A DNA stretch of 64,000 bases from positions 806,001-870,000 of the forward strand of contig NC_087258.1 of assembly GCF_037042905.1 (NCBI RefSeq). The letters run 5' to 3'. The position numbers and the translations under genes are program-made. Below the pieces are notes generated by a model. The model did no database searches. It had not been told where the DNA came from and saw only the letters and a program-made list of their open reading frames with translations. How positions within the stretch are numbered: position 1 is the first letter of the stretch; every line of letters starts with the position of its first letter. This document shows, in pieces, positions 28,764-54,634 of the stretch. The stretch comes from Lytechinus pictus. Its lineage: Eukaryota.

Positions 28764-31700
28764 TTCTGGTAATTGTGGGTGAATCGGATTTCAGATCAGT
28801 TGGCGCAAATGAAGTATCTCTAGTGGAAGGTAGTCTTGAAGGTGCAGTCGTGGTGGTTTTGAAGCCTGCTTCCGTTGTACTTCCAGACGGTGTGGTTGTA
28901 TAAAATCCAAAGGCAGGTGATGTTGAAACGGGTCTTGTTGTCGCTGGAAATTTCGGGGAGGATGTAGACATTACAGTCGTTGATGCATATGTGCTTGCTT
29001 CGACTGTGGTAATTCTTTGAGGTTTTACTGTATCTTCACTCACGGTGTGTATTTCTTGAGTAATTGGGGCAACAGTTATACCCTCAGTGGATAATGTATT
29101 CGGATATGTTCTAGCTTCTGGTGTGGATGTACTTGTTGCCTCCTCGTCACCGCTGGGTTTATCGGTGCGGACCTCGGATGTGTGAACAACAGGAGTTTCC
29201 TGAGATGAAGATATTTCAGCTCTCGTTGGTGTCGTAGTAAGAGGAGCCATTATATTAGTGGGCGTTGTGTTAATTGAAGAAGCTGTCATAATATCCTCAG
29301 TTGAAATAATCACGGTTGTCACCCCTTCTGTTATTTCTTCTTTTACAATACGGGTTATAATATCAGATACATCAGAAAATGAAGGAATCGCTCTTCCTTC
29401 CGTTAGGGTGAATGGATTCTCCGTGGGTGCTGCTGTGGTAATTTCAATGCCATGCCAAGATTCTATAGTTATGTCCTCGCCACTATCGTATGTGATGTCC
29501 CCTGTAGCTGTGTCTATTGTAGGCCTAACAGATATTAATTCATCTGAAACAGACAGACTAAGAATAGTTGGTGACTGTGGCGTAACTGAAACAGCTGTAC
29601 TTCCTTGTGTTGGAGCGGTGGATTCGGTTTTGGTGACGATAGTTTCCGCTTCAGAAAGTGCTGAAGTCGTTTTCCCATCTGTTTTTTCCTCAGTTGTTCG
29701 CAATGTGGAGAATGGATTATCAGTGTGTGTCGCTAAAGTAATGCCAGTGCCATGCCACGATTCTGTAGTCATTTCGTCACCTAAATCGTCGATGATGTGC
29801 CCTGTTATGTCTAACGTAACAGATATTAATTCATCTGAAACAGACGGACTAAAAATAGTTGGAGACTGTGGCGTAACTGGATCTGTTGAACTTCGTTGTG
29901 TTGGATCGGTGGGCTCGGTTTTAATGACGACGGTTTCCGCTTGAGAAAACATTGGAGTCGTTTTTCCTTCTGCAAATTCTGCAGTTGAATGTAAATTCTC
30001 ACCAGAAGTCGGTGGTCTGGTTTTAAACATCGTACTATATGAACTGGCAAAGTCTGAAATAAGACCTTCGGGTGCTTGATCTGTACTCATTGTTTCTGGT
30101 GTGTCCTTCCCTATTGTGGCAAGTGTAGAGGGACTTTGTGGATAAACAATGGTAGTCATGAAATCGGTTCTACCCAATTCAGGTTTGAATGTCGTGTCAA
30201 ATTCAAATGTTGTTTCTACTGTCTCAGACGATACAATAAAAGGGTCGTTAGCGGTTACTTCCCGAGACGTAATTCTATCAATTTTTTTGGTTACCCTGTC
30301 TGACTGACGAACCATTCTTGTTGTTGATATTTCTTTCTGTAGCATATCAGGGTCTTCTAGGGTCACTATAGCCGTTTCAAATTCAATAGTGACTGTTGAA
30401 TCAATAAGATTTGTTGAGGCGTTTGATATCGGCTCTGTATCACCCCTTTCTGTAAGTAAAATGTCTGTTCTAGAGTCATCCTCGGAAATAGTGGTTACAT
30501 CGTAAGTTGGGCGAGTTGATTTTAACATACGTTCACTTACCATACTAGCATTTGTCGAAATGCTTGGTGCCTCGCTTAAAATGCTAGACACAAGTTCTGA
30601 TATAACAATAGTTCCTGTTCCCTTTTGGGAAATATCCGTGGTCTCTGGATGATGTTCAGTGATTCCGGAAGTCGACTTCTGCTCATAGGTCACTTCTATG
30701 TCATCGTATTCTTTGTAAGTCGGTGTTCTGACTTCATCTGTTACTATTCGCACAGATGTTGCATCATCCACGAGTGCAGAAAACTCAGAAACATCAGATG
30801 TTATTGCATCCATTGAGTCAATGACGGTGACATCTTCTGTCGCCATCGATGATGTTGCTTCAGCTGCGTCTTCACTTCTGATTTTTCCAGTTAAAGTAGT
30901 CTGATCTGTCTCTAGCGTGAATGTGATACTATCCTTTCTATCTAAAGCCGTCGAATCATCATGTGCAGTGAGTATAAACTGCTTATCAGTGGCTACAACA
31001 GTTGTGTCTGTCTCTGTTGGAGCTGGTGTTTGGCCTATGTCCCTCGACGATTCTTTTCCTTCAATACTGTACGTAATGGTTTCAGTGTACCACTCGTCTT
31101 CTGTTACGCTTCTGTCGGTAGGCGTTCCAATTGGGAAGGTATGTTCAGGATATTGTTTCTTGGTATGTCCTACTGTTCTCTCTAAAATAGAAGCCAAATC
31201 GTGTGTGATAGAGAGGGTAGAGTATGTTGTATCAGTCATCTCAAATGGCTTGTATGTGGCTGTGCTTTCAAAGTCCATATCTTGGGAAATTTCTTTTTCC
31301 GTTTCAGTTATTTCGAGACTGTCACTGACAATATCTGACTTTTCCGTAACTACCGACTCGAATTTAAATGTGGGTAAATCAATACCCGTGTTTGTAGATG
31401 ATTTGGAGGGCAAAGGCGTTGTTGTATCCCATGGATTTAAGCCATCTGATTCGCGTGTCATGATGATCTGGGTAGAGATACCTGTTATGATTTCAGTAGT
31501 TAAGTCTCCATCTCCCTCCAATGTTGGTGTATCGGAGATTTCTGTCAATATCCCCTCTGTCTTAGCGCCAGGTTTTCCCTTAGTAGTAGGCATTGATACA
31601 GGTGTTTCTGTTCCTAGAAAACTAGATTTCATATCAGAGGATTGGTCAGTGCTCTTCGGATATCCGTCGATTGCAGTTGAAATGCTTTCAGTTGGGATTT

Positions 31701-34700
31701 CCGTTTCCACTCCGACAGTAATCATATCGATGGATTCTTTTACTTGTTGTCTCGTATCATTAAAAGTTATTCTAGTAGTCATTAAGTCTGTGACAATGTC
31801 AGAAAGTTTTGTGCCTTGCATTATTATTGATCCATCCGTAGTTCGTTGCTGGATATCTAATTCAGTCGATATATAGGTTGGTCCGTCAGAGCCAATGACA
31901 ACATCTGTTGCTTCCTGTACTCTTCCGGTTATTGTAGAGGAAGGCATATCCATCCCAGTCTGCGTTGGTGATTTAGAAAGGGGTGTTGTTGGGTCGACGA
32001 CTTCAGTGTTTTTTACAATATCACCTATTATTGTGATATCAGATCTACTGGAAGATAAAATATGTGTCGAAAAACCAGTTACAAAGGTTGTGACTATTTC
32101 TGTTCTTACTGTATCATCTTTCTGGGTGGTTGCTTTCTCTGTCTTTGTGTTTTGATATTCCTCACTACGAATTATTGTGGTAGCTTGTTCTGTTCTTAGA
32201 AATTGGGATGTCCCTTCTTGGGATTGGTCGGTGCTCCTCGGATCACCAACGATTGCAGTGGACGTAATTTTAGTTGTAGGTAATGTGGAAGATGGTGTAA
32301 GGGATTGGACTTCCGTTACAATAAATGTTTGATATTCAGTGTCCCAATCAGTTCCAAGACTCAATTCGCTTTCTGTTTTACTTTGAATTGTTGTCCCCCT
32401 TTCCCCTATATTATCTCTGATGGTACCATCAACTGAATCTTTGGTTGGTTGACTAGTTTGATCTAAAACAACGCTCACAAACTCAGTGACAACGTCAGTA
32501 GGAAGAGTGATTTCTTGTATTCCCAATGCCTCATCTGTAGTTGTTTGTTGCGAGTCCATTTCAGTCGATAAGAGTTCTTGAATATGAGTTGCTCTGGCAA
32601 CATCAGTGACAATGGTTTTAGGTGATGTGGAAGATGGCTTTGGAGATTGGACGTCTGTTACACTATATGTTTGCAATTCAGTGTCCCATTCAGTCCCTAG
32701 ACTTAATTCGCTTTCTGTTTTACTTTGGATAGTTGTCCCACTTTGTCCTATATTATCTCCGATGGTACCATCAACTGGTGAATCTTTAGTCGGTTGACTA
32801 GTTTGAACTAAAACAATGCTCAAAAACTCAGTGACAACGTCAGTAGGAAATGTGATGTCTTGTATTCCCAATGCATCATCTGTATTTATTTGTTGCGAGT
32901 CCATTTCAGTCGATAAGAGTTCTTGAATATGAGTTGCTCTGGCAACATCAGTGACAATGGTTTTAGGTAATGTGGAAGATGGCTTTGGAGATTGGACGTC
33001 TGTTACAGTATATGTTTGATATTCAGTGTCCCAATCAGTCCTTAGACTTAATTCGCTTTCTGTTTTACTATGGATAGTTGTCCCCTTTTCTGCTATACTA
33101 TCTCCGATGGTACCATCAAATGGTGAATCTTTGGTCGGTTGACTAGTTTGATCTAAAACAATGCTCACAAACTCAGTGACAACGTCAGTAGGAAGTGTGA
33201 TGTCTTTTATTCCGAATGCGTCATCTGTAGTTATTTGTTGTGAGTCCATTTCAGTCGATACGAGTTCTTGAATATGAGTTGGTCTGGCAATATCATTGAC
33301 AACGGTTTTAGGTGATGTGGAAGATGGCTTTGGAGATTGGACGTCTGTTACAGTATATGTTTGATATTCAGTGTCCCAATTAGTTCCAAGACTCAATTCG
33401 CTTTCTGTTTTACTTTGAATTGTTGTCCCCCTTTCCCCTATATTATGTCCGATGGTACCATCAACTGGTGAATCTTTGGTTGGTTGACTAGTTTGATCTG
33501 AAACAGCGCTCACAAACTCAGTGACAACGTCAGTAGGAAGATTGATGTCTTGTATTCCCAATGCCTCATCTGTAGTTGTTTGTTGCGAGTCCATTTCAGT
33601 CGATAAGAGTTCTTGAATATGAGTTGCTCTGGCAACATCAGTGACAATGGTTTTAGGTGATGTGGAAGATGGCTTTGGAGATTGGACGTCTGTTACAGTA
33701 TATGTTTGATATTCAGTGTCCCAATCAGTTCCAAGACTCAATTTGCTTTCTGTTTTACTTTGAATTGTTGTCCCCCTTTCCCCTATATTATGTCCGATGG
33801 TACCATCAACTGAATCTTTGGTTGGTTGACTAGTTTGATCTGAAACAACGCTCACAACCTCAGTGACAACGTCAGTAGGAAGAGTGATGTCTTGTATTCC
33901 CAATGCCTCATCTGTAGTTGTTTGTTGCGAGTCCATTTCAGTCGATAAGAGTTCTTGAATATGAGTTGCTCTGGCAACATCAGTGACAATGGTTTTAGGT
34001 GATGTGGAAGATGACTTTGGAGATTGGACGTCTGTTACAGTATATGTTTGATATTCAGTATCCCAATCAGTTCCCAGACTTAATTTGCTTTCTGTTTTAC
34101 TATGGATAGTTGTCCCCCTTTCTGCTTTAATATATCCGATGGTACCATGAACTGAATCTTCGGTCGGTTGACTAGTTTGATCTGAAACAATGCTCACAAA
34201 CTCAGTGACAACGTCAGTAGGAACTGTGATGTCTTGTATTCCCAGTGCTTCATCTGTATTTATTTGTTGTGAGTCCATTTCAGTCGATATGAATTCTTGA
34301 ATATAAGTTCGTCTTGTAATTTCTGTGACGATATCTGTCGTCCCTCGTATTGATCCAATTGGTATAGATGATGACCGTTCCGGCCAAACTCCCGTTGTTA
34401 ATTCAGAAATGAAAGCCGTTTTTTCATCAAATTCTACGTCTGTCACTTTAATATCCACCGAGCTTGAATCATCTGATATGCTCGACATCAGAATATGGGT
34501 TGAGACGCCAGTACAATTTTCGGTGGCTAAAGTCGTATGAGGTCCCGATCTAAGTGTAATTTGTGGTACAGTCGCTACCTGTTGTGCATTAGCTCTTACA
34601 CCATCCTCACTATTAAGCATCTCAGTAGCTTGTTCTGTTCTTAGAAATGAAGATAAAAGATCTAGGGATTGGTCAGTGCTCCTCAGATCACCATCGGTTG

Positions 34701-35300
34701 CAGTGGACATGATTTTTGATGTAGGTGATGTGGAAGATGGTGTTTGGGATTGGACTTCCATTACAGTATATGTTTGATATTCAGTGTCCCAATCAGTTCC
34801 AAGACTTAATTCGCTTTCTGTTTTACTTTGGATAGTTGTCCCTCTTTCTCCTATATTATCTCCGATGGTACCATCAACTGATGAATCTTTGGTTGGTTGA
34901 CTAGTTTGATCTGAAACAATGCTCACAAACTTAGTGACAACGTCAGTAGGATGTGCGGTGTCTTGTATTCCCAATGATTCACGTGTGGTTATTTGTTGCG
35001 AGTCCATTTCAGTCGATAAGACTTCTTGAATATGAGTTGATCTGGCAATATCAGTGACGATAGTTGTAGGTGATGTGGAAGGTCTCGTTTGAGAATGGAC
35101 TTCTGTTACAGTATATGTTTGAAATCCAGTATTCAATTCAGTTTCTAGACTTGATTCACCTTTTGTGTTACTTGGTATAGTTGTCCCCCTTTCTGCTTTC
35201 ATAACTCCGATGGTACCATGAACTGAATCTTTGGTTGGTTGACTAGTTTGATCTGAAACAATGCTCACAAACTCAGTGACAATGTCAGTTTGTTCTTCTT
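28764..35300 (-). CDS. Transmembrane mucin gene, giant 6537-nt Thr/Ser/Glu/Asp-rich repeat exon
   Basis: Stop-free ORF of 2238 aa. Acceptor TTTTTTGCAG at 35301 and donor A|GTAAGT at 28763, both phase 1. Eight copies of a 114-115-aa repeat (342-345-nt spacing). Confidence 0.9.
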
Positions 35301-36234
35301 CTGCAAAAAAATCAAATGAATAAACTGTTTCAGTACTCGTGGTACACGTAAACGGGGATACGATAAATACCAATAAAGATTCAGTGCTCCTGTTTAATAA
35401 TGAACATTACCATTGGCAAGTCAGTTAATAACATGAAATCAATTATTTTTATTATTGAGATGGAAGATAATTGTCGGTGCGTCTCTAATTTTAATTGATG
35501 ACATCTTCCCAAATTGTACGAGATTCAGGAAATCAAATCCTGAATCTGATTGTGAGGTTTATCAAACTTTTGCTCCCGAAATGATTTATTTTTTTCTTCT
35601 TCTTTTTTGCAAAGTACAGTACATTCGAATCGCGGAGAATCGGAAGATATTTGATTTTTGTAAGGGGATATGATTAATCAAATCACAACAGCAGAATATC
35701 AGCCATATTAAAAATAGGGTTTGAGCGGCGGCATATACTAAATTATCCTTGGGTTGGAAATAATAATGACAACTTTCAAAGAGTTTACAGGTTTGTTATT
35801 TTCTTGAAGATGTTATACCTTGCTTACAGATTGACAATCCAGCGGTTGTCTTTTTTTTAATCATATTTGCCTGACCCCATGCCGATGCAAAAATAAAATC
35901 CCATGCCACTTCAAATCACGCAGAGCCCGATTCGCAATTTCCGTTGTTAAATGACTGAAAATCAAATCTCTGTTATTATCATACTTCTTTGTCCTACAAA
36001 CTATCCCTTCTTTGCCCCTCCCCCTTCTCTCTCTCTCTCTCTCTCTCTTTCTCTTTCATTCTGCTCTGCAGTCTTAAATGTCACTTCTGTTTCATTATTA
36101 CATGATTCATGCACTTCCTTTCAAATGATTTCTAAATTAAAATGAGAAAAGCTCTTGCGAGTTTTATCATTAGTTCTTTTTTTACAGCGCACTTAAAGAT
36201 GATGAACATGCAATACAAAAATTGAAATTCCTAC

Positions 36235-38495: not shown

Positions 38496-38591
38496 GACCT
38501 TCAAAATGTAGCTTCATCCCATCATCCCGACCACCCCCAGCCCCTTCTCGCTACGGATATAAACCACTTTATTGAGTGTTATGTAACGTAA

Positions 38592-38870
38592 AGGTCAAGT
38601 CCACCCCGAAAAAATGTTGATCTGAATAGATAAATCAAACTAGCATAACGCTGAAAATTTCATTGAAATCGGATGTAAAATAAGAAATTTATGACATTCT
38701 AAAGTTTCGCTTATTTTTCACAAAACAGTGATATGCACGATTCAGTGACATGCAAATGAGAGAGTCGATGATGTCCTTCACTCACTTTTTATTTAGTTTT
38801 TTATTGTTTGAATTATACAATATTTCATTTTTAACATATTTGACAATAAGGACCAACTTGATTGAACCAT
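38592..38870. mobile_element. Left half of the Kolobok/T2-like MITE interrupted by the Polinton
   Basis: AGGTCAAGTCCACCCC start, co-linear with 23187-23460 up to GACAATAAGGACCAACTTGATTGAACCAT. Confidence 0.85.
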
Positions 38871-39401
38871 AGAGAAAGAGGAAGTCCAAGTAAGTGCACA
38901 ATGGGCAAATTAGCATAACAATGGAATATGACGTAATAGTTAATTTGCATAACAATGGAGGGTATGAATGGCAAGATGACATCACACGATGAATATTCAT
39001 GAGTAGAACAAAAGAAGGGTATCGTGGATAAACAAAGGGAACAATGGGAGACCTCCTAGTCCAAGTAGGTGCACAATAGAGGTTTTAATGAATATGCATG
39101 AGCAGTCGAAAATCAAAGTAAGTGCACAATAGAGGGTCTCATGAATATGCATGAGCGGTCGAAAATCAAAGTAAGTGCACAATAGAGGGTCTAATGAATA
39201 TGCATGCGACAGGGTTGGTGACATGTCCAGGGTATGTTTCCTAGCAACAAGATAAACAAAAACCCAGCAACAAGGTAAACAAAATTGATTGGATGTATTT
39301 TTAACCCATTTCTATTGTTTGAAGGTTAAAATTAGAAACGGGGACGGATGAAACAATAAGAAAACTTGAATAGTAGCCTGAGAACGGAAAAACATAGCAA
39401 C
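38871..39401 (+). repeat. Left terminal inverted repeat (531 bp)
   Basis: Starts AGAGAAAGAGGAAGTCCAAG and is the reverse complement of 54635-55271. Contains about 2.6 copies of a 53-bp unit (GTGCAC at 39069, 39122, 39175). Confidence 0.95.
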
Positions 39402-39736
39402 AACTTAAAAATATGTAAAAGTTGCCCCTATTCTTACATTACTGGTACCTACATAGTCCAATAGATAAGAAAGTCTGGTTATGAACTGTATCCTTTCATG
39501 CTTGCAGCAAACAGTACTTCAAGAGAGGGGTCGATGATGTTGAGATGACTCTGTATTGACCAAAGAGATTATTTCCGCCCATCAATATTTTTGTATTCGG
39601 AGTTCACTCTGTATTGATCGAATAGATTAGTTCCCTCCATTCATACATGGGCGAAGGGAAATGACCGTAACCAATCTTCTCTTACATGTATAACATGTAT
39701 TTCAATCATTGCAATGTAAGTTGTTTGATATTTGTC

Positions 39737-39948
39737 AAGGGGGTCCAGTGCCTAGTAACAAGGGCTGTGTATTGACGATGGTTCAGTCGAGAAGCTGTTT
39801 GTTAGTTGCCAAGGGGGTCAACTGCCTAGTAACAGGGGCTATATATTGTCGAGGCATTACTCGAGATAGTCACATTCTTCAGGATAACTGTAGAGACAAG
39901 TGAGCTCCATCTATCGTATCAAGCCGTATCTACTTTTTGACACTTGCA
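39737..39948 (+). promoter_or_regulatory. Putative pPolB promoter and 5' non-coding exon
   Basis: Two 30-bp direct repeats (39737-39766, 39811-39840) directly followed by TATATATT (39840-39847). Donor GCA|GTAAGT at 39949 pairs with acceptor CTATTTCAG at 40184, 6 nt before ACC-ATG-G. Confidence 0.45.
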
Positions 39949-40190
39949 GTAAGTAGGAAATTTACTTTTCTATCTTAAATTACCGATTACTATTTGAAAC
40001 AAACTATTTAGAGTCGATTTATTATATGACACTGTTTTAAATATTCTATGCATAACATGATTTAACCCGAGAAGATGGAATTCTGTAAATGGATGTTACT
40101 TGTATCGATATGTTATTCATAAATGTTTAGGCCATGTCATCTGCATTTCTAAATTCTAAAACAAAATATATATGTCTATTTCAGAAGACC

Positions 40191-43100
40191 ATGGCTAGTC
40201 AGTGGACATCTCAGGATGAACATCAATATATTCAAGCTAGGCAAGTACTTGCCAGCTTGGAGGAGCGACGCAAACGACACCAGGCAAGGAGGGCCAATGA
40301 AAGGGCGGAATTGCTAGATGCAAGACGCGGAATTTCATCCGTTCGGTCCTCGCCTTCTTTGACCACGGAGGAGTATCCCGTTATCCCTGAAACTCCCGAT
40401 GACGAGGAGGAATATCCTGTCATTCCTGAAACCCCTTCTGAAATGGTAAGTTTATCATCTTTTAATATTTGAGTCAGTGTATATAGGAACAGAAAAAGAT
40501 AAAGCTTGAACAATAAACACAAGTGTTGATGTAACCAGTCTGACTTGTATGTTGTTATTTTTTCTTTACTTCTACGTTACAGATGGTGTCTGAAAGCCCT
40601 ACAAGGGATGAAGAGGAACGCATGGAATCCGAAATAGATCCCTCAGATTCTGAAATGGTACGTCCCTATCCTTGCTATTGTATACCCGTTTTTTTAAACT
40701 ATTTTGGGAAAAAAATATTTTAAAAATGTATGCAATAGATATGTAAGCTTTATCATTATAATCTAATAGCGTTTTATTCTTTTTTCATTTATACAATTTA
40801 GATTTTGCCAGATAGTAGTCGGGATCTGTTTGACTCTCAGAAAAGCAGCGCTCTCGATTCGAATACTCTCGAAAGTGAAAACAGCAAAGCCCCTGAATCG
40901 GATAACGTGGCCTCCGAAGAAGTAAGTAATTTCAATCTTTAAATATGACGTTACCTAATGAAGCAATGCTGGAGAATATCAAATGACTTAAAATAAGAGT
41001 ATCTAATATGCTTACTCTAATTCCACTTTCTTCTTTTTTTTGTGTGTGTATGCATATCCACAGGTAAACATGGAACATTTTTACGATGTTGTGGAGGAGC
41101 AAGAAAGAGATGCACCCCGCTTCGGAGGACGCGTGACGGATTTTAACATCGTCGTGAGGCCGTTGCATCGGCTTGTTGAGGAGATGGGCTCCCTCGAAGT
41201 TATAGGTAGATTATTTTCTAGCATTATTTCACGTCTAACCGAGGGTTTCTTGAACGGTGATCTTGTAGGTTTCATTCTGTCAGGTTCCAATTTACGTCAG
41301 GATGTAGGCATTCCTCTGACTCGATATGATCAACTATCAGTCGATCGAATTTTAGCTTTGTTGGAGCAAATTTTACAATCCAACGAAGATTTTAACATCT
41401 CGGAAGGATTCAAAATACGTTTAGTTCATATTCGTATGCCGCAAGGAGGTAAGGGATCGGAAAATATGATTCCCCTTGACAAATTCATTCGCAAAAAGGG
41501 TAGATTTATCCAAATTACAAACAAAGATGAGCTTTGCCTAGGTAGAGCACTGGTAGTAGCCATGGCACATGCTCATAAAGAGGAGGATCCTGCTAATTTT
41601 CATCAAATCACTCACCCTAAAAAATACACGACCCAATTTGATGCGGCAAAACAACTCTTTATAGACTCTAACGTACCGGAGGGTGTTTGTGGAATCCCAG
41701 AAATAGAAAAATTTCAAAATATCCTGACAGAGCGAGGGTACCAGATTGCCGTCTATGTCAATGGTGGAGCCCACGGCAGGATATATGCCGGACCACCCAA
41801 TAGGCATTTTCTTTCTTTATTCTATCACAACAATCACTTCGATGTCATCACTAAGATGCCAGCATTTCTTCGCAAATCATATTTCTGTAATACCTGTCTA
41901 AAGGGATACGATATGAAGGCCAAGCATAAGTGCAAAGATACATGCAGTGCCTGTAAGAGTGAGACAAATTGTGTATTGATTAAAAGAACAATGTGTGAAC
42001 GATGTGGGCGTGTGTTCAAAAGTCAAGAATGTTTCGACAACCATCTTAAACAGGTAAGTGGTAATAAGAGTGTATGTCGGTTATTCTTCAAATGTAAACA
42101 GTGCAATGTAATGTTAGATAGCACCCGCGGCAGTGACAAGACCCATGATTGTAGGTTCGGGTATTGTGAACGATGTCGTACTACAGTATCAAAGGAGGGT
42201 CATCAATGCTTTATGATTCCTCTGCCCAAGAAAAAGAAGAACAAAGCAAAAAATCAGGAAGAGAGGAAGAAAGGAGACGATACCCAAAAGTTTATTTTCT
42301 ACGACTTTGAATGTCGTCAAGATGACAAAGTCGATGAAAATGATCACGGTTCAGTCTTTAAACATGTACCCAATCTTTGTGTAGCAATAAGAGTGTGCGG
42401 GCAGTGTTTTGACAAACAAGATGCATGCCCTGATTGTGGGGTACGTGAACATGTTTTTAGGGGGAAAGACACGTTGGACAAGTTTGGGGAATGGTTATTT
42501 GGCATAGAGGAAGATCACAGGGGGGTCATTGCCATTGCTCACAATGCTCGATCCTACGATTCACAATTCATTCAGGAGTATTGTCTAAAGTCGGGGGTGG
42601 TACCTCAAGTCATCATGAGTGGTGCTAAAATTCTATCACTCACTTTAAATGATGTAAAATGTATAGACTCACTTAGTTTTCTTGCCATGCCATTGTCTTC
42701 TTTTCCTTCAACCTTTCAACTGAAGGAATTGAAAAAAGGGTTCTTTCCTCACTTTTTCAATACCCTCGAAAACCAAGATCATGACGGACCGACCTTGCCA
42801 CCTAAAAAATATTACGATCCAGATGGGATGTCAACAGAAAAACGCGACGAGTTTGATGTTTGGTATGCGCACCATCAAAACGACAATTTTAACCTTCAAA
42901 GAGAATTACTAGAGTATTGTCGTTCTGATGTCCAAATTCTGATGGAAGGTTGCATGGCTTTCAGACGTCTCTTTATGAGCGTCACGGATAACATCGACCC
43001 CTTCCATAACATAACGATTGCCTCAGCCTGCAATACTGTATTTCGGACGCAATTTTTGAAGCGAAATTCCATAGGTCTCATCCCTGTCCAAGGATACAGA

Positions 43101-44897
43101 CATAAAGATCGACACTCAATCATTGCCTTGAAATGGCTCGAATGGGTTAGTCATAACGAGGGAATTCAAATAGAGCATGCGCGTAACGGTGGTGAACATC
43201 GAATCGGCAACTACAAAGTGGATGGTTACGATTCAGCAACGCGGACTTGTTATGAATTTTTAGGGGATATTTGGCATGGGTGTCCACGCTGCTACAAAAG
43301 GCGTGATTTGCTTGTTCCTGGTTCCAGTACCACCGTTCAGGAGGTATACGACCAGACAATGTATAGAATAAATGCATTGAAGAAACAGGGATATCGCGTC
43401 ATCACGATGTGGGAGTGTGACTTTGCAAAATTAAGACGCGAAAACAAGACGCTACAGACGTTTTTGGAAAAACTACAGTTTCGGGATCCTCTCAATCCTC
43501 GGCATGCTTTTTACGGAGGGAGGACAAACGCGGTGAAATTGAGTCATAGAATTCAGGGTAATGAGAGAATCAAATATGTAGATGTTTGTAGTCTTTATCC
43601 TTGGGTTTGCAAGTACGGTAAATATCCCCTGGGTCATCCCGACATTATCACAAAGGATTTCGAGGATATTCAGCGCTATTTTGGATTGGTGAAATGTAAA
43701 GTCTACCCACCTCGACAACTATTTCACCCTGTTCTCCCATACAGGAATGAGGAGAATAAGCTTCTCTTTCCTTTGTGTCGCACATGCGCCAACGAAAAGC
43801 AAACTTCAAAATGTACGCATAGCGACGAGGAAAGGGCCCTTGAATCTACGTGGGTTACGGAGGAAGTAAAGAAGGCAATAGAATTGGGGTACAAGGTTGT
43901 AGAACTGTTCGAAGTGTGGCATTATCCTCACTTTGACCAATACAATCCTCGAACCCAGGAAGGAGGACTCTTCAGGGATTACATAGATCTGTTTTTGAAA
44001 GTCAAACAGGAATCAAGCGGATGGCCCTCCGAATGTCATTCCCATGACGACGAGGTGTCCGCCGATATACAAAAAAAGCGCGCAAATTATGTGAGACAAT
44101 ATCATGAAAGAGAAGGTGTGCTCTTAGACCCTTTAAAAATCAAAGCCAATAAAGGACTTAGGGCTGTGAGCAAGATTTGTCTTAACAGCTTTTGGGGCAA
44201 GTTTGGGCAGCGGAATAATCTTCCAAAGACAGTCTATACGGTGGAACCTGAAGAATTCTTCTCACTGGTGTCGGACCCCAAATTGATCATTAAATATGTC
44301 GACTTCCCTACTTCGTATATGGCGCACGTGCAATATGTTGAGGAGGATGACTTTTTAGAAGTCCTCCCCAACACAAATGTGGTAGTGGCTGCCTTCACCA
44401 CGTGTTGGGCTCGTCTGAAGCTCTATTCGTACCTCGAAGAGCTTCAGAAGAATGTGCTGTATTTTGATACAGATTCTATCATATACCTCAAGAATGATGA
44501 AGTAGAAGATGTCCCCACTGGGAATTTCTTGGGTGATATGACGGATGAATTAGAAAAAGATTTTGGGGTGGGTAGTTATATTACGGAACTTCAGGCCTTG
44601 GGACCAAAAAACTACAGCTACCAGGTTTTCTCAACCAAGCATGGAAAAGAAATGCCCGGAGCTTGCAAAGTACGTGGTATCACGCTAAATTATAGAAATG
44701 CAAAGCTGGTCAATTTCGACACACTCAACGAGCTCGTGCATGGTGAACGCACTCACACCACCGTTACAAATGCGCATAGAATCGCGAGGATGCGTACCCA
44801 CAATATTGTATCCCGCGTGGAAAATAAAATCCATCGTATGGTATATGATAAGAGGGTACGTCTATCCGATTTTAACACTGTTCCATATGGGTATTAA
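40191..44897 (+). CDS. polB: Protein-primed family B DNA polymerase (pPolB), spliced, about 1427 aa, with vOTU-like protease, Zn fingers, 3'-5' exonuclease and a Vsr-like insertion
   Basis: Motifs FYDFEC (ExoI), AHNARSYD (ExoII), YCRSDV (ExoIII), YVDVCSLYP (A), KICLNSFWGKFGQ (B), YFDTDS (C). Exons 40191-40445, 40583-40657, 40802-40921 and 41064-44897 are joined by phase-0 GT-AG introns. The identity is secure, while the upstream exons are predicted. Confidence 0.95.
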
Positions 44898-45732
44898 GAT
44901 ACATATGTTGTATTTCTACCATTGATACTCTTTACCTTCTAACATTCTATATTTGCATTGTATCTCACCTCCAAATTTTCCTATGTTATATTTAATTCAC
45001 GCGCTACAAAGAATACTTTATAAATCAAATATTTTTATGCCAAATTTTGTGTCATATTATTGCAAGCACTCGGTGCTACCTGATGATTGATGTAGTGTAT
45101 AAACGATAATATTTCAGTGTATGATAATTGCTCTTTGTTTACTTAGTTATGTAAAGGATTTCAGAATGGTGCAATATATATATATACTAAGAAAATTCTT
45201 GCCATTTAATTTGTTCGTACTTCTGCGAGTGTGTGTGTGTGTTTGCATGTTTAGAACGAGAGAGAGAGAGGGTTTTTCAATCGTATCCCTTATTCGCCTT
45301 CGGTTAGACGTGAACTATTGTAGGGAAAATAATCCACCACCCTCAATTTGAACGACGATGTATATGTATATTGTTATATGTAATCAAGATATATATTTTT
45401 TATATCCTGTGCTTATACATTATATATTTGACTTTTCAAAATGTCTGAAAATAAATACGAAAACAAATCACATTCATTGTTATCGATCGTCTCTTTTTAT
45501 TGTAATGTGTGCATAAAAAGGAGTGTGTATGACACGATAAGCGAGAGAGCATGAGGGAGGTCTTTTCGCCGATGTTTGATAAGCAATAAGTATGTTATAG
45601 GTAAATGCTATAAAACAAAAATAAAAAAAAATAAAAAGTACGAGATGTATAAAAGAACCGCAAAAAATCAGAGAGACTGAATGTACATGTATAAAGGAGA
45701 GTGATTCTGACAAGTTGGAGGCATTTGGTGGG

Positions 45733-46371
45733 ATGGACGTTCGCCTGAAACATCCATTTACAGCTCTCATAGCAGGACCGACGGGGTGCGGTAAAACTCA
45801 ATTTGTGAGGAAACTCCTCAAACATCATGAAAAATTGGTGGATAAACCTTTTGATAAAGTCATTTGGTGTTATGGGGAATATCAGGTGGGTTATGCTGAT
45901 ATGGCGAGGGATATGCCATTCATTGAATTTCAGGAAGGTATTCCCTCGGATTTGGAAGGGATATTTGACCGCAGGAACTCTAATCTAATCGTTCTGGATG
46001 ATTTAATGTCCCAGGCAAATCAGGATCAAAGGGTGTCGCACCTTTTCACTAAAGGTAGTCATCATCGCAACCTTTCCGTTATTTTAATAAGCCAGAACCT
46101 ATTTCATCAGGGAAAAGAAAGTAGAACCATCAGTCTCAATGCCCACTACATGATCTTGTTCAAAAATCCACGCGACTCTTCTCAGATTGTCCACTTGGCA
46201 AAACAAATTTACCCGCAAAATGGAAAATTTCTGCAAGAAGCCTATAAAGATGCAACGGGTCGACCTCATGGCTATCTCCTCGTAGACCTCAAACCAGACA
46301 CGGATGAAAAATTACGGTTAAGAAGTAATATTTTCCCTGGAGAAAGAAATGTGGTGTATGTCATGAAATAA
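45733..46371 (+). CDS. A32/FtsK-like DNA packaging ATPase
   Basis: Walker A GPTGCGKT, Walker B LIVLDD, and GSHHRNLSVILISQNLF. TATAAA boxes at 45648 and 45690. Confidence 0.95.
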   Translation: MDVRLKHPFTALIAGPTGCGKTQFVRKLLKHHEKLVDKPFDKVIWCYGEYQVGYADMARDMPFIEFQEGIPSDLEGIFDRRNSNLIVLDDLMSQANQDQRVSHLFTKGSHHRNLSVILISQNLFHQGKESRTISLNAHYMILFKNPRDSSQIVHLAKQIYPQNGKFLQEAYKDATGRPHGYLLVDLKPDTDEKLRLRSNIFPGERNVVYVMK

Positions 46372-46464
46372 CTGTGTTTGCCCTATAAAGAGGTTGGGCA
46401 AAATGGAATGGTCATCAGTTGACATATAAATACATTTGCGAAAGCAACAACAGACTCATTCGGC

Positions 46465-46785
46465 ATGTCTCGCCGTGTAAAGAGCAACATTCCATACCTG
46501 CGCGTCTTGGCTAGGGGAACCCCGGCACAAAGAAAAGGTGTACTGCAAGGTGCTAAAAAGGATTTGATTGAAACAATTTGTGAATGCGCACTTAATATCC
46601 TTCACGGCACTGTTCCTTTGTCTGTTGTGGAAAAAAATAAACTTCGTCAGCATAAGCACAAGTTGAGAAGCCTTTGTAATAAAAAGATCTCTCTTCAAAA
46701 AAAGAAAAAGAAGCTGGTAAACCAGAGAGGTGGATTTTTACCATTTTTGATTGCCCCAATCCTGGCTAAAATATTCAGATCGTAG
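46465..46785 (+). CDS. Small basic Polinton virion/core protein with an adenovirus pX-like C-terminus
   Basis: ICECALNILHGTVPL block, Lys run, then QRGG|FLPFLIAPILAKIF (protease-site-like motif plus amphipathic helix). Lies in the structural gene block. Confidence 0.8.
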   Translation: MSRRVKSNIPYLRVLARGTPAQRKGVLQGAKKDLIETICECALNILHGTVPLSVVEKNKLRQHKHKLRSLCNKKISLQKKKKKLVNQRGGFLPFLIAPILAKIFRS

Positions 46786-46805
46786 AAAAAAGGATAGCGA
46801 CCACC

Positions 46806-47594
46806 ATGCAGTACGCCAAAAAAATGGTGCTGGTACCCCACGAAACCGTTCAGCATGTTAACGCTTCGCACGAGCATGGAGTAGCTCCTACCTTTAAAGG
46901 TCTTGCCGGATTAGACGAGCAAATGCAGACTATTTTACGCAGGCAGGACATTCCAGAGGATGAAAGAGTGAAACTCTATCAGCAAGCCCTCATGGGGTAC
47001 ATCAACCTACATCACAAACTCAATGAACCGATAGCCCTACAGGTGGAGAATGTACCGGGGAATAATCTTCCTGCGATCACGTCTGCAAAGTCAAACGAAA
47101 AGGCAACGCTTCATACCGCTCCTTCCACCTCCCCCTGGATGCAGCGTGTCAAAGAGAGTGTCCCTAAAACACTGGTCCAGAAAGCAGGGCAAATCATGCA
47201 TCTCCTTCAATCTGCACCTGATCATCGCATAGCTATCAATGACAAGGGAGAAATTTTGTTGGATGGCAAGGCGCTAGAAGGAACGCACATTGTCGACCTA
47301 GTCAATGATATGTTGAGAAAGAGGAAGAGTTTTTCTCCAAAAGGATGGCAAGAATTTGCACGGGTGATGGCTACTCTGCATCCCCCGAGGGAGCTCGTGG
47401 GAAACCAAGATAGATGGAACTTCATGCAACGACAAATTTCTACCGAATCCTTACTTCCCCGAACTACAGAATTTCAAGATCACAAACCAGACAACTTGAA
47501 TACCGTGGAGGTGTTTGCTAGAGCGGATCACCTTCCTGCAACGAAAAGAGGTCGACCCAAGAGACAGTCCTCCCCAGACTGGATCCAGTATTGA
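46806..47594 (+). CDS. Conserved Polinton protein (PZ-like), function unknown
   Basis: Blocks AKKMVLVP, LDEQMQTIL...KLYQQAL and NDKGEI..DG...GTHIVDLV...PKGWQEF, recalled from animal Mavericks. Kozak-like CCACCATG. Confidence 0.75.
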   Translation: MQYAKKMVLVPHETVQHVNASHEHGVAPTFKGLAGLDEQMQTILRRQDIPEDERVKLYQQALMGYINLHHKLNEPIALQVENVPGNNLPAITSAKSNEKATLHTAPSTSPWMQRVKESVPKTLVQKAGQIMHLLQSAPDHRIAINDKGEILLDGKALEGTHIVDLVNDMLRKRKSFSPKGWQEFARVMATLHPPRELVGNQDRWNFMQRQISTESLLPRTTEFQDHKPDNLNTVEVFARADHLPATKRGRPKRQSSPDWIQY

Positions 47595-47748
47595 TAAACA
47601 TCGGTATTCAACTTTCTTATTCATTTCATGACACTTCTGTTCTCGAGCAACATGGGATGTTGGCCTCCGTCACTGAGGCTACAGTTGGAACGTGTCCGAT
47701 GTGCCTTGGCTTGCTGCAAAGGAAACATCAATATACACGAATCATCCG

Positions 47749-48819
47749 ATGGAGGACATCCTAAAAAAGGTGTATTACGATCCGGAAAACCCTGCCGGTT
47801 TTGGTGGTGTAGATGCTGTTTACCACGAGCTAAGGAAACAAAACAAAAATATAAAGAGGTCGGACATAAAGGAATGGTTGACAGAACAATCGACTTACAC
47901 ACTTCACAAACCCCTACGGAGAAGGTTTAAACGAAACAGAGTCATCGTCTATGGCATAGATCATCAGTGGCAAGTGGACCTGGTTGATATGCAGGCTCTC
48001 TCGCGACAAAATAAAGGATTCAAATATCTCCTGACCTGTATTGACATATTCTCCAAATATGCTTGGGTTTTACCCCTCAAAGACAAGAAAGCGGCGACCC
48101 TTGTTGAGGGCTTTCAGAAAATCTTGAAAGAAGGCCGAAAGCCATACAAACTACAATCTGATAAAGGAGGGGAATTTATCAACAAACCCTTTCAGCGCAT
48201 GTTGAAAGAAGAAGACATCGTATTCTTTACTACTCAGAACGAAACAAAAGCTAGCGTAGTAGAAAGATTCAACCGAACCCTCAAAGAGAAGATGTTCAAG
48301 TACTTCACCAGTCACAACACACGCAAATACACGAATGTACTGCAAAAGTTTGTTTCGGCTTACAATCGTCGCAAGCACTCGAGTATCGGCCGCCCACCCT
48401 CGGAGGTTAAGGCAACGAATGAGAAGGATGTATGGATGACGTTGTACGCTGACCTACCTAAAAAGGGTTCCAAGGAGGCAAAGTTTCGAATGGGAGATCA
48501 CGTGAGGCTTTCCATAGCAACGCAGGTTTTCAGGAAAGGGTATCTTCCCAAGTGGACGGAAGAGATATTCTCCATCAGCCGACTTATTGGAAGGACACCC
48601 ATCGTCTACAAAGTCAAGGACGCCGGTGGAGAAGAAATTGATGGCACCTTCTACGAACAGGAATTACAAAAAGTCGTCCCTCCGCGAGATGATTTTTACA
48701 AAATAGAAAAAATTCTGCATACTAGGAAGCGAGGAGGTGTGAAAGAATATTTCGTCAAATGGTGGGGCTATCCCGACAAGTTCAACAGTTACGTTACCGA
48801 CCTTAAAACTATTCCATAA
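47749..48819 (+). CDS. int: Retroviral-like (rve) DDE integrase with C-terminal chromodomain
   Basis: WQVDLVD, LQSDKGGEF and VVERFNRTLK form the catalytic triad. YKIEKIL...EYFVKWWGYPDKFNSYV is the chromodomain. Consistent with the 6-bp TSD. Confidence 0.96.
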   Translation: MEDILKKVYYDPENPAGFGGVDAVYHELRKQNKNIKRSDIKEWLTEQSTYTLHKPLRRRFKRNRVIVYGIDHQWQVDLVDMQALSRQNKGFKYLLTCIDIFSKYAWVLPLKDKKAATLVEGFQKILKEGRKPYKLQSDKGGEFINKPFQRMLKEEDIVFFTTQNETKASVVERFNRTLKEKMFKYFTSHNTRKYTNVLQKFVSAYNRRKHSSIGRPPSEVKATNEKDVWMTLYADLPKKGSKEAKFRMGDHVRLSIATQVFRKGYLPKWTEEIFSISRLIGRTPIVYKVKDAGGEEIDGTFYEQELQKVVPPRDDFYKIEKILHTRKRGGVKEYFVKWWGYPDKFNSYVTDLKTIP

Positions 48820-48859
48820 AAGAGATCAACCGAAGGCAACGGGTGTTATTTCACTCACC

Positions 48860-49624
48860 ATGGCTAAGACAACAGCATCCTCGTTTTATGTGACTCTGCC
48901 TAGCAACAGTTCACTCGATGTATTCCCTAGGAATACCCTCTCTTCGTTCAAAGTGAGACTACCTCATACCGTCATACTCGAGGGAATCTGGGAAATGGCG
49001 ATGGTAGAGCTGCACTACCCGAACAGATGGTTTAATTATCATTCTTCCCACTTGAACTCCGGAATTCTATACTCAGGCGATGGTGGAATAAGCTGGGACG
49101 AACATCGCATCCCAAATGGTTACTATGACAACATCAAAGAGCTTCTGATCCTAATTGTCCCGACAGATTTACGTCGTACCATTGAGTTTACATTCAACGA
49201 TTATTCTAGCAAAGTGACCTTTGTCACGCGAGATCCCTTTTACAGGGTAAAAATGACGGGAGGGTTGGCTACCATGTTGGGTTTTGAGGATGGGTCTTCC
49301 ATGGCGGGGCCATTAGAAGCTCCATTACCAGTCGATATGATGTTGTTTCATGGATTATATGTGTATACAGACCTCATTGAACATCAGCTTGTGGGCGATA
49401 CAAGGGCCCCTCTCTTACGAGTTGTGACAGTAAAGGACAGACATGGCAAAGACGTAACTGTCAATTTCGAGGCCCCGCACTATCTACCTATGAACCAGAA
49501 GCTCTTCAATACGATCGAAGTCCATATAAAGGATGACATGGGTCGTAGTATTCCATTCCAGCGTGGGAGAGTCGTTGTTAAACTACATCTGAGGAAGAGA
49601 TCGCCTTCTTTGATTCACGGATAA
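48860..49624 (+). CDS. Minor capsid (penton, single jelly-roll) protein
   Basis: FYVTLPSNSS...NTLSSFKVRLP at the N-terminus and YVYTDLIE.QLVGD..APLLR...IPF..G.V.VKLHLRK at the C-terminus, typical of Polinton pentons. Confidence 0.88.
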   Translation: MAKTTASSFYVTLPSNSSLDVFPRNTLSSFKVRLPHTVILEGIWEMAMVELHYPNRWFNYHSSHLNSGILYSGDGGISWDEHRIPNGYYDNIKELLILIVPTDLRRTIEFTFNDYSSKVTFVTRDPFYRVKMTGGLATMLGFEDGSSMAGPLEAPLPVDMMLFHGLYVYTDLIEHQLVGDTRAPLLRVVTVKDRHGKDVTVNFEAPHYLPMNQKLFNTIEVHIKDDMGRSIPFQRGRVVVKLHLRKRSPSLIHG

Positions 49625-49652
49625 GAGTGTATTTTTACAAGAAAAATTAAAC

Positions 49653-50108
49653 ATGGCGAGCACTGGTTATCTCTCGCCTCAAGTCTACACAGATTATTAC
49701 ACTAGCCAAGTAGGGAATGGTGTACCTGTATTCTCCGGAGGAGTGATGCAACAAGGTTTTGGTATTGGAGGTTTACTAGCCAGAGGACTGCGGGCAGCTA
49801 TGCCCCTTTTGAGAAGAGGAACGCAAGCCGTGGTTAAAAAGCTTGCCTTTAGAAAAGGGGGCAATTCATTGGCTCAGAGAGCTGTCAATGCCGGAATCAA
49901 CTTTGCAGCTGGGGCTTTGTCAGATCATCTTGATAAAAAGATCGGTGTTAGGAGGGCTCCCAAAAGAAAACGCGCTACCCGTCGACGACAGGCAACTGTC
50001 AAGAAAAGGCGAGTTGGGTCTAATAAAAAGGGGAAACGTCCAAAAGCATCCAACAGTCGTCCTGGAGTCGCTGCGAAGGCAAGAGCTCGAGATATTTTTG
50101 ACGCCTGA
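49653..50108 (+). CDS. Small basic core / membrane-active virion protein
   Basis: YTDYYTSQVGNG...MQQGFGIGGLLARGLRAAMPLL followed by an Arg/Lys-rich tail and C-terminal DIF. Located between penton and MCP. Confidence 0.8.
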   Translation: MASTGYLSPQVYTDYYTSQVGNGVPVFSGGVMQQGFGIGGLLARGLRAAMPLLRRGTQAVVKKLAFRKGGNSLAQRAVNAGINFAAGALSDHLDKKIGVRRAPKRKRATRRRQATVKKRRVGSNKKGKRPKASNSRPGVAAKARARDIFDA

Positions 50109-50135
50109 GAATAATCGGGAGAAAATCAAAGTACA

Positions 50136-51470
50136 ATGGCCTTTGTCCATAACGATTCGTGCGAGTGTGTCAAATCAGAGTTGGACCTCTTCAGTATTCC
50201 ACCTACTCAAACCAGTATTGAACAAGGGCAATGGATAGAATACCACCCCCTGGCTCAATTTTCAGACGGAGGACCCATCGAGTTTCACATTTCTGGTTCA
50301 GGAAGCGAATACCTAGATCTCACTCAGACACAGGTCTATGTAAAAGCAAAAGTGGTCCATCAGGATGGTACCAATCTTGTGGACGGAGATCAAGTTGGAC
50401 CGGTAAATCTGTTTCTGCACTCCCTCTTCTCACAAGTGGATGTCAGTTTAAACGATCGAGTGATCACGCCTTCTACACCAACCTACCCCTACAGGGCTAT
50501 GATTGAATCATTGCTTCAATATGGGTCAGAAGCCAAGGAGACCCAGCTGACCTCGGCTCTCTTCTACAAAGATACCGCTGGCTGTATGGATAATCCCAAC
50601 CCTCTAGATAATACCGGAGATGCCAACCAAGGTTTGAAGAAGAGACACGGTTACATCAGATCATCCAACAGTTTTGAGATGACGGGGCCGCTTCACTGCG
50701 ATCTATTCTTTCAACCCAAACACCTATTAAATGGTGTAGATGTACGAGTTAAAATGATCAGAAGCAAGGAAGAATTCTCCCTCATGTCTGCAACACCCGA
50801 TGCTCCCTACAAAGTTGTCATTCAAGATTGCTCCCTCTTTGTTCGGAAGGTTAAAGTTTCCCCCTCTGTGATGATAGGGCATGCAAGAGCGCTGGAAAAG
50901 GGAACAGCTAAATATCCAGTCCGACGTGTGATGTGCAAGGTTCTCTCTGTCCCTCGTGGGGAAATGACGTTACAGCAGGACCATCTTTTCCTGGGACAGA
51001 TTCCACAGCGTCTCGTTGTGGGATGTGTAGATAACAATGCTTTCAGTGGCAGTTATGTTCACAATCCGTTCAACTTTCAACACTTTGACGTCAATTACAT
51101 GTCCCTCTACGTAGATGGAACACAAGTTCCATCCAAACCATTAACTCCTGATTACGGACGTATCGCTGGATCGGCTTCAATCAGAGCTTATCATACCCTC
51201 TTTTCAGGAACGGATAAAATGTTCAGGGATTCTGGAAACGATATCAGTAGGGAGGACTACGATCGTGGATACGCACTCTATGCCTTTGACCTCTCCCCTG
51301 ACTTATCATCGGGTCAGCATTTCAACTTGAAAAAGCAAGGAAATCTGCGCTTGGAGATACATTTCAGGAAGAATCTACCACAGGGAGTGAACATTGTTGT
51401 CTATGCAGAATTTGACAACATCCTAGAAATTGACCGAGCCCGCAACGTCCTGTTTGATTATTCTGTGTAA
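50136..51470 (+). CDS. Double jelly-roll major capsid protein
   Basis: 444 aa. ECVKSELDLF.IPPTQTSI, PIEF.ISG....YLDL, LHSLFSQVDV.LN, YPYRA.IE.LL, NPFNFQHF and LYAFDLSPD motifs of the Polinton MCP. Confidence 0.95.
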   Translation: MAFVHNDSCECVKSELDLFSIPPTQTSIEQGQWIEYHPLAQFSDGGPIEFHISGSGSEYLDLTQTQVYVKAKVVHQDGTNLVDGDQVGPVNLFLHSLFSQVDVSLNDRVITPSTPTYPYRAMIESLLQYGSEAKETQLTSALFYKDTAGCMDNPNPLDNTGDANQGLKKRHGYIRSSNSFEMTGPLHCDLFFQPKHLLNGVDVRVKMIRSKEEFSLMSATPDAPYKVVIQDCSLFVRKVKVSPSVMIGHARALEKGTAKYPVRRVMCKVLSVPRGEMTLQQDHLFLGQIPQRLVVGCVDNNAFSGSYVHNPFNFQHFDVNYMSLYVDGTQVPSKPLTPDYGRIAGSASIRAYHTLFSGTDKMFRDSGNDISREDYDRGYALYAFDLSPDLSSGQHFNLKKQGNLRLEIHFRKNLPQGVNIVVYAEFDNILEIDRARNVLFDYSV

Positions 51471-51472
51471 AT

Positions 51473-52000
51473 ATGTATGCTTCCGATATTGATCGCATCA
51501 TGAGGAATGATACAGCAGTGGGAGGAATCTACGAGGGCGTTTATCCCTCCGATCGATTGATCATGGAAGCAGTGCCCCGACCTTCAGCTTATGTTGTTAA
51601 CCTAGACCCAGCCCATAAACCTGGAAGCCATTGGATCGGTATATTCATGGATAGCTCTGGAAATTCAGATTATTTTGACTCTTATGGAATCCCCCCACCC
51701 CCTGGAAAAATTCGGAAATTCTTACGTCAACATACGGATGGTCGAACCGGATGGAACCGCTTCAAGCTTCAGGGAGACTATTCCACAGTCTGCGGACAGT
51801 ATGTGATATTCTTCTTAACCCAACGTGCCAGGGGTAGAAATATGGATTCTGTCATTCGCAAATTTTCTTTGGATACGGATTTGAACGATCATCTTATCCG
51901 AGATTTTGTCCGAACTAACTATGGTTATGATCAACCGGTACATCAAACACACTTTCTGGATGACCAACTATCAAAGGCTGTTTATCCTTTGTTTCTTTGA
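51473..52000 (+). CDS. Adenain-like (Ulp1/C5 family) cysteine maturation protease
   Basis: VNLDP..KPGSHW (His), YFDSYG (Asp), LQ...STVCGQY (Gln/Cys). Confidence 0.93.
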   Translation: MYASDIDRIMRNDTAVGGIYEGVYPSDRLIMEAVPRPSAYVVNLDPAHKPGSHWIGIFMDSSGNSDYFDSYGIPPPPGKIRKFLRQHTDGRTGWNRFKLQGDYSTVCGQYVIFFLTQRARGRNMDSVIRKFSLDTDLNDHLIRDFVRTNYGYDQPVHQTHFLDDQLSKAVYPLFL

Positions 52001-52053
52001 TTTGTCATACGTATATAACATGTAAATATTGTTGTTTTGCTGTGATGAAAAAA

Positions 52054-52549: not shown

Positions 52550-52554
52550 TACAT

Positions 52555-53139: not shown

Positions 53140-53266
53140 GAATCGCTTGCCATTTTCTAAAATGGAATAAATATAGAAAGAACATACGCATAGCTATGTG
53201 GGACATGTTACTATAAAGCAATATTGTACGACTACAATATCAAGGATGTGTATGATGGATCAGCGT

Positions 53267-54612: not shown

Positions 54613-54634
54613 CTTTGCTGTTTGACCAAACAAC

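Follow-up and report, generated by a model that had tools for sequence, protein, structure and literature searches.

The gene for the family B, protein-primed DNA polymerase (pPolB) of a Polinton element in Lytechinus pictus is probably a five-exon gene spliced by the host, with a 150-aa leader that likely serves as a nuclear-targeting or docking tail on the terminal-protein domain. We are most confident of the gene structure itself, as the division of pPolB into upstream exons is close to certain. It is a real but modest variant of the Polinton polymerase genes, which are usually described as intron-free. Positions refer to the window, the whole 64,000-nt stretch of DNA that was analysed.

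Exon-intron structure of the pPolB gene

The core of pPolB is exon 4 (41064–44897, plus strand), which is predicted to encode terminal-protein and OTU-like domains, a Cys-rich region, an exonuclease and a polymerase. Upstream on the same strand lie coding exon 1 (40185–40445, 85 aa from ATG 40191), exon 2 (40583–40657, a 25-aa acidic spacer) and exon 3 (40802–40921, a 40-aa spacer rich in Ser and acidic residues). They are separated by intron 1 (40446–40582, 137 nt, GTAAGT..CAG, GC 0.29), intron 2 (40658–40801, 144 nt, GTACGT..TAG, GC 0.24) and intron 3 (40922–41063, 142 nt, GTAAGT..CAG, GC 0.30), all on the plus strand and in phase 0. Intron 1 has a counterpart in a sister family and is present in a RefSeq model, and intron 3 lies at the start of the predicted terminal-protein domain. 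Counted from ATG 40191, the upstream exons have coding lengths of 255, 75 and 120 nt, are free of stops and have GC contents of 0.51, 0.45 and 0.47; in every one of the three introns, all reading frames are closed by stops. The long open reading frame is joined in frame at base 41064, giving 85 + 25 + 40 + 1277 = 1427 aa. These three introns had been proposed in an earlier note on the same DNA, and every coordinate, length, phase and splice dinucleotide given there was confirmed.

By simple consensus scoring of 39870–41100, donors 40446 and 40922 were joint first among 61 GT sites and acceptors 40582 and 40801 first and second among 74 AG sites, while donor 40658 and acceptor 41063 were tied with several other sites. 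The earlier note had described the listed start of the long frame as only a TTG. The in-frame TTG is indeed found at 41040, but an in-frame ATG in good context (AAC ATG G) at 41070, six bases past the last acceptor, had been overlooked. Because of this ATG, splicing needed demonstration and could not be assumed.

The count of three introns is correct for the coding region but probably misses one in the 5′ UTR. ATG 40191 sits 6 nt past an acceptor at 40184, and we therefore place a fourth, non-coding intron in front of it (intron 0, 39949–40184, plus strand, 236 nt, GTAAGT...TTTCAG, GC 0.27), as indicated by one contig with 29 nt on the short side. All four introns have a GT donor, a pyrimidine tract and a YAG acceptor, which is the U2 spliceosomal pattern, and an ATG lies within 0–6 nt of the acceptor in each of exons 1, 2 and 4. 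The likely non-coding first exon (39869–39948, plus strand) has a presumed start and a 3′ end taken from the loose end of a contig from run X8; a scan found no ATG inside it. A predicted core promoter (39840–39873, plus strand) has TATATA at 39840 and a 13-nt word at 39861–39873 that is identical in the sister family and that we take to be an initiator. The seven extra N-terminal codons of a RefSeq model match a stretch of the terminal repeat at 39045–39066, which is followed by GT, and an alternative first exon inside the repeat is possible.

The suggestion that exons 1 and 2 arose by duplication is weak. The two exons share their last 10 bases, an end-anchored match with a chance probability of about 4e-6, and their peptides resemble each other (E-[TS]-P..DEEE..SEM). 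The likeness does not extend to the wider DNA, as their local alignment was no better than shuffles (50 of 300 reached the score).

The gene lies in a Polinton

The pPolB gene is part of an element of 16,401 bp (38871–55271, no strand assigned) with AG...CT ends, flanked on both sides by a 6-bp target duplication, AACCAT (38865–38870 and 55272–55277). The left terminal inverted repeat (38871–39401) contains 53-bp repeats and pairs with ~54635–55271, the arms being 97–99% complementary. Pfam matches on the element include the polymerase family PF03175 (E = 1.2e-40), rve (E = 8e-12) and Pox_A32 (E = 7.5e-7), as well as PC4 and WW domains; a match to Peptidase_C5 (adenain) is weak (E = 0.11), and the Pfam search returned no match for the ORFs of 444 and 254 aa. 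The best Foldseek match of the pPolB model is phi29 polymerase (E = 1.4e-6). With inverted repeats, a 6-bp duplication, a protein-primed family B polymerase, a retroviral-type integrase and a packaging ATPase, the element is a Polinton. The common description of such elements as having intronless core genes, which is not a strict criterion, fails here.

A DNA search of genome G000 found one further copy of the pPolB 5′ region, on C17, which is 98% identical to the window. Everything upstream of 39904 is missing from this copy, which a one-base deletion in exon 1 and more indels have disrupted. The exon and intron substitutions between the two copies are few, below the number needed for a selection test. 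Another broken pPolB lies directly before the copy on C17.

Splice junctions in sequencing runs

Eight of 17 candidate runs were aligned, namely the contig runs X5, X7 and X8 of organism B, a related species, and X1, X11, X15, X16 and X17 of organism A. Contigs of X5 and X8 (two of the three organism B runs) carry the exact 40921>41064 GT..AG joint of intron 3, the shorter flank being 60 and 44 bases long; the two runs belong to one study and are RNA by the tool's guess only. The X8 contig starts at 40185 with 29 loose bases, which equal 39921–39948 bar one substitution and one extra T and end just before the GTAAGT donor, suggesting removal of the 236-nt 5′ UTR intron (39949–40184). No joint of introns 1 and 2 was seen in any of the eight runs; exon 2 is without coverage in the organism B contigs, and the 3′ end of intron 2 is still present, unspliced, in one X7 contig. 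The alignment of RNA that had been put forward as a check hence bears out the junction of intron 3, in runs that are presumed to be RNA, but not those of introns 1 and 2. An intron-less DNA copy in organism B may also be the source of the joined form.

The five organism A runs gave no splice joint. X15 and X16, which are confirmed RNA, yielded 85 and 69 reads and X17 yielded 23, about 6% of each run having been read. The X1 and X11 contigs are unspliced and may represent DNA or RNA of a host intron. Since X1, X11, X15 and X16 carry variants of the broken C17 copy, expression of the window's own copy is putative. In X15 and X16 the first mate lies mostly on the plus strand, which is antisense if the library is of the dUTP type. 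At the truncated and frameshifted C17 copy (L029, ~3655) we noted low-level transcription that is mostly antisense and perhaps lies within a host intron.

Relatives, RefSeq models and intron turnover

A protein search of G000 gave 23 matches, of which the 5′ ends of 13 were inspected, the remainder being fragments or uninspected. Leader introns were found in nine of these 13 pPolB 5′ ends and a long in-frame leader in four. A single predicted phase-1 intron occurs in each of L005–L007, L009–L010 and L011, and long open leaders are present in L013, L014, L015 and L017. Phase 0 is not a general design, as other families use phase-1 introns or none.

The sister family on C8 has the gene order of the window and an amino acid identity of 47–68%, depending on the pPolB segment. 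Its exons of 210, 105 and 210 nt come with three phase-0 introns of 212, 125 and 131 nt, the last of which is five residues before an F-Y shared with the window and hence at the same codon position. A comparison of this kind, of intron positions among related Polintons, had been put forward as a check in the earlier note. Exons 2 and 3 of the two families do not align. In the C8 family the TAG of the acceptor is an in-frame stop, and the first Met is residue 58 of exon 4; splicing is therefore required for an intact terminal-protein domain with its first strands.

The long ORF has a RefSeq counterpart from Lytechinus pictus with 100% identity, modelled as an uncharacterized protein. The RefSeq protein P0001 has the four exon translations adjacent and in order, and P0077 (C8) and P0078 (L007) agree with our exon calls. 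Models of these exons exist in two Lytechinus species, and one L. variegatus model is exactly 1427 aa long; RefSeq models are automatic predictions, and their starts vary (1436 versus 1446 aa). The intron-3 joint in X5 and X8, the C8 layout and these models uphold the 150-aa leader and the protein of about 1427 aa proposed in the earlier note. Its statement that annotation based on ORFs would miss the exons is true of ORF calling but not of RefSeq, whose models contain them.

In cluster 2 of Logan, a form of 1384 aa has a homologous leader, and forms of 1294 aa depart from it only before the same junction residue; judged by the proteins alone, these would be spliced and unspliced forms. In a quick tree of 33 rows, which has SH-aLRT support only and leaves out L006 and L011 for short or missing pieces, the window, C8 and these relatives fall in a 7-row clade (94) within a 10-row clade (98). 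In the latter, an apparently intron-less relative (P0009/P0090) and a one-intron family pair as sisters. Judged from these sequences, leader introns come and go, and the three-intron layout appears to be inherited within the 7-row clade.

Compared with the L. variegatus models, the window shows no loss of frame and differs at 1–2 of 85 residues in exon 1 and at 7 of 270 and 26–27 of 680 residues in the core. Exons 2 and 3 differ at 3–4 of 25 and 6 of 40 residues (12–16%), about fourfold faster than the core. A profile of exon 1 had seven matches among 1.84 billion proteins, of which P0082 was set aside as spurious because it is repetitive. The matches that have names or continue into a longer protein lead into pPolB. 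A search with the longer protein returned two matches only, both own-species models, and a single-protein query found no related DNA in viral or metagenome contigs.

Structure and conservation of the leader

In the AlphaFold model of the L. variegatus protein, a helix spans residues 7–47 (pLDDT ~36–60), confidence is low from ~42 to 149, where the acidic tail is predicted to be disordered, and a folded alpha/beta domain begins at ~153, which is the start of exon 4. The first 269 residues of exon 4 (pLDDT 88) are predicted to have an alpha/beta outline matching a terminal-protein domain, followed by an OTU-like domain. The latter gives weak Foldseek matches to OTUD1 and OTUD3 (E of 5e-3 to 1e-2), with its Cys and His in helix and strand contexts. 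Residues 1–47 of the leader have a net charge of +3 and residues 48–150 of −24. GGKRK or KRK patches occur in several leaders of other pPolB families of G000; the window leader has no GGKRK patch, and its only comparable stretch is RRKRH, within the helix.

Exon 1 starts with W-[ST]-x-x-D-E, which is present in all eight aligned leaders (chosen by similarity), and the helix with this start is kept across the 10-row clade and in independent contigs. The exon also contains a twin YPVIPETP (40374–40436, plus strand; copies at 40374–40397 and 40413–40436). The two copies differ by five synonymous changes and no replacement (p ~0.001–0.002), which is independent evidence that exon 1 is translated.

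There are four Ser-Pro or Thr-Pro dipeptides in the leader and none in the 1277-aa core (41064–44894). Two V-I-P-E-T-P sites, at leader residues 64 and 77, fit the rule for binding to TOPBP1 BRCT1. Among shuffles, 0.14% contain two or more matches to the rule, but the choice of this motif was post hoc and the two copies represent one duplication. Among 19 proteins scanned, only three Lytechinus models of the window's family have a motif of this type in the leader, and docking of TOPBP1 through YPVIPETP is a lead only. A four-site array that adds MVSESP and ILPDS was rejected, as both are altered in L. variegatus. A NUSAP identity was also rejected: the Pfam match (E = 0.002) is below the cutoff and of coiled-coil type, and we read it as a generic charged helix. 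A leader query of the ESM Atlas returned no usable match and is given no weight either way.

Alternative explanations

The gene might produce regulated isoforms, in which exon 2 or 3 is skipped, or the non-coding exon is joined to exon 2 or 4 (ATG 40583 or 41070), so that long and short polymerases would serve different tasks or tissues. The shared phase 0 of the coding introns and the ATGs close to the acceptors would suit this, and RefSeq has two isoforms of the C17 copy (P0036 and P0037), told apart by a single Met at the N-terminus. Among introns, phase 0 is the most frequent anyway, the C8 family lacks an ATG near the acceptor of exon 4, and other families have a single phase-1 intron or none. 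No skip junction was found in the eight runs, in which coverage of the leader is thin; tuning of the leader by exon skipping, as proposed in the earlier note, would be permitted by phase but is hypothetical. We regard regulated isoforms as rather unlikely and constitutive use of all exons as quite likely the main form.

Somewhat less probable again is that the leader is a dispensable by-product of neutral intron gains in an unstructured region, the enzyme starting at ATG 41070 or needing any upstream start. The rapid divergence of exons 2 and 3, which cannot be aligned between families, and an intron number that ranges from 0 to 3, down to the apparently intron-less P0009/P0090, are what such a history would leave. 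It fits poorly with exon 1, which is as well conserved as the core, with the W-[ST]-x-x-D-E helix and with the absence of replacement changes between the YPVIPETP copies. It is very improbable that the exons before pPolB were captured from the host or form a small gene of their own. Nematode Mavericks do have intron-bearing cargo genes beside the left terminal repeat (available text of 10.1101/2022.07.12.499685), but the 40921>41064 joint, which connects exon 3 directly to exon 4 in two runs, largely refutes this reading. Moreover, only two places in G000 matched the region in the DNA search, both of them Polinton copies, and the exon-1 profile leads into pPolB. An origin of the introns as introners was rejected, as pairs of introns align no better than shuffles (122, 78 and 27 of 300) and the region occurs at two places in G000.

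Proposed mechanism

For a host-spliced five-exon pPolB gene we envisage the following. RNA polymerase II would transcribe the gene from the TATA-type promoter at ~39840–39873, starting near 39869. The host spliceosome would then likely remove all introns, of which intron 3 was seen joined, the 5′ UTR intron is indicated by one contig, and introns 1 and 2 are predicted. Introns would persist because Polintons copy DNA to DNA. Translation would begin at ATG 40191, the first ATG of the spliced mRNA, and give a predicted product of 1427 aa with the order leader-TP-OTU-EXO-PALM, in which exon 1 would supply a basic, charged helix and the conserved repeat, and exons 2 and 3 fast-evolving spacers. 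Following the model of PMC11071308, cleavage by the OTU domain would take place after the terminal-protein domain and leave the leader on the piece bound to the 5′ ends of the genome. There it could take the role of the DNA-binding or localising N-terminal domains of phage terminal proteins. Because of this analogy and the GGKRK/KRK patches in the leaders of other families, nuclear targeting or docking is in our opinion the most likely role of the leader, though one that we hold with evenly divided confidence.

It is conceivable, if doubtful, that a spliced module, hidden at the N-terminus, is common among animal Polinton polymerases and corresponds to the helical extensions that their terminal-protein domains supposedly lack, and that the twin CDK-type sites of this family dock TOPBP1 onto the covalently capped ends, coupling replication or integration to the cell cycle and DNA repair.

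Comparison with known systems

The comparisons in this section follow those parts of the cited papers that were available. Like the Polintons/Mavericks (adintoviruses, eupolintoviruses) that have an Alpha-type OTU and a PF03175 polymerase (PMC8502044; PMC8097293), the element has inverted repeats, a 6-bp duplication, pPolB, rve, an A32-type ATPase, a weak adenain match and a predicted OTU-like domain with Cys and His in the expected structural elements. The core genes of intact vertebrate Mavericks are described as intronless (PMC8097293), and in nematode elements introns are tied to cargo genes, the core of one element being described as intronless (10.1101/2022.07.12.499685). Here, in contrast, three introns split the coding part of pPolB and a further one likely lies in its UTR, and a gene with WW and PC4 domains is also predicted to be spliced. 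The architecture TP-vOTU-EXO-PALM, in which the vOTU is suggested to cleave after the terminal protein (Krupovic et al. 2024, PMC11071308), is matched by exon 4, where a predicted alpha/beta domain is likewise followed by an OTU-like domain. The terminal proteins of PRD1 and adenovirids have N- and C-terminal helical extensions, described as absent from Polinton D1 domains (PMC11071308). In our gene a spliced exon provides a predicted N-terminal helix that is lost to ORF calling; its likeness to the PRD1 and adenovirid extensions is by description only.

In adenoviruses, a related virus lineage, the E2B region likewise yields the terminal protein (pTP) and the polymerase (AdPol) by way of Pol II transcripts that are spliced (PMC9499273; PMC7851563). 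Adenovirus introns are mostly outside coding regions, however, and pTP is a separate protein, whereas in this gene short introns of cellular style split 150 coding residues of one fused protein. In the terminal protein of phage phi29, the priming domain is preceded by a basic, helical N-terminal domain that binds DNA and localises the genome, and nuclear localisation signals are reported in several phage terminal proteins (PMC4974454). The phi29 fold is unrelated to that of the Polinton terminal protein, and the analogy is functional only. The BRCT1 phospho-ligands of TOPBP1, such as RAD9, Treslin and RHNO1 (PMC6175577), follow a rule that V-I-P-E-T-P fits: its positions −4/−3 are hydrophobic, its proline at −5 is tolerated, −1 is acidic and +1 is a proline. 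In the window this is a fit of sequence only, and the leaders of sister families were scanned and lack the motif. Dinoflagellate eupolintoviral elements carry introners, that is, spliceosomal introns in Polinton-like elements, mostly gained after integration (PMC12166617). Unlike these, the introns described here are inherited across diverged families and are mutually dissimilar.

In their available text, PMC8502044, 10.1101/2023.08.22.554363 and PMC12220804 make no mention of a spliced pPolB. We found no paper describing a spliced pPolB leader in a literature search whose scope ended short of Kapitonov & Jurka 2006, Pritham 2007, Repbase, subscription papers and supplements.

As far as their available text goes, surveys have defined intact Mavericks by intronless ORFs and modelled pPolB from ORF calls (PMC8097293; 10.1101/2022.07.12.499685; PMC11071308). 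If many animal families start pPolB upstream, published sequences are without the true N-terminus, intact elements have perhaps been miscounted, and claims about features absent from the terminal-protein domain should be revisited. A gene that depends on the host spliceosome also speaks for an adenovirus-like life cycle in the nucleus, with transcription by Pol II. The importance is moderate, as RefSeq already contains the exons, under an unnamed protein, and the function of the leader is putative.

Further observations on the element and its surroundings

A repeat resembling a MITE, with long inverted ends, has copies at 8345–9112, 23180–23780, 38590–38870 and 55278–55578, one of which was apparently the insertion site of the Polinton. 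Outside the element, a host-like open frame of 2249 aa (28657–35406, minus strand) contains about seven tandem repeats of 114–115 aa and has a weak match to DUF7610 only. On C8 of G000 (34646000–34676000, L026–L028), pieces of at least three Polinton copies from different families lie side by side. In L005–L007, a GC-richer island in the pPolB intron of 856–874 nt codes for a short, hydrophobic, Trp-rich peptide; a related peptide frame is present upstream of exon 1, and P0092 begins with a similar stretch.

The second predicted spliced gene (54382–53267, minus strand) consists of a WW exon (ATG 54382, donor 54001, phase 0) and a PC4 exon (acceptor 53648), and the C8 family (L027, 8400–7520, minus strand) has a phase-0 intron at the matching place. 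Upstream of this gene, at 54495–54470 (minus strand) in the window and ~8492–8468 (minus strand) in L027, both have CATATAA followed by CG[GC]GAAATTTGAAA, together with CACGTG and TGACGT words. These resemble TATA, E2F and CHR elements of cell-cycle promoters, an arrangement reminiscent of the adenovirus E2 promoter. Ahead of a 194-aa ORF (52555–53139), both families have a pyrimidine tract and a phase-1 AG (window 53157 and L027 ~7420, both minus strand); a partner exon for this ORF was not found. The terminal repeat and the region upstream of pPolB contain repeated C[CA]TAG[CT]AAC / GTTGC words, at 39240, 39393, 39751, 39805 and 39825, which resemble RFX half-sites, and two similar words occur in the upstream region of the C8 family.
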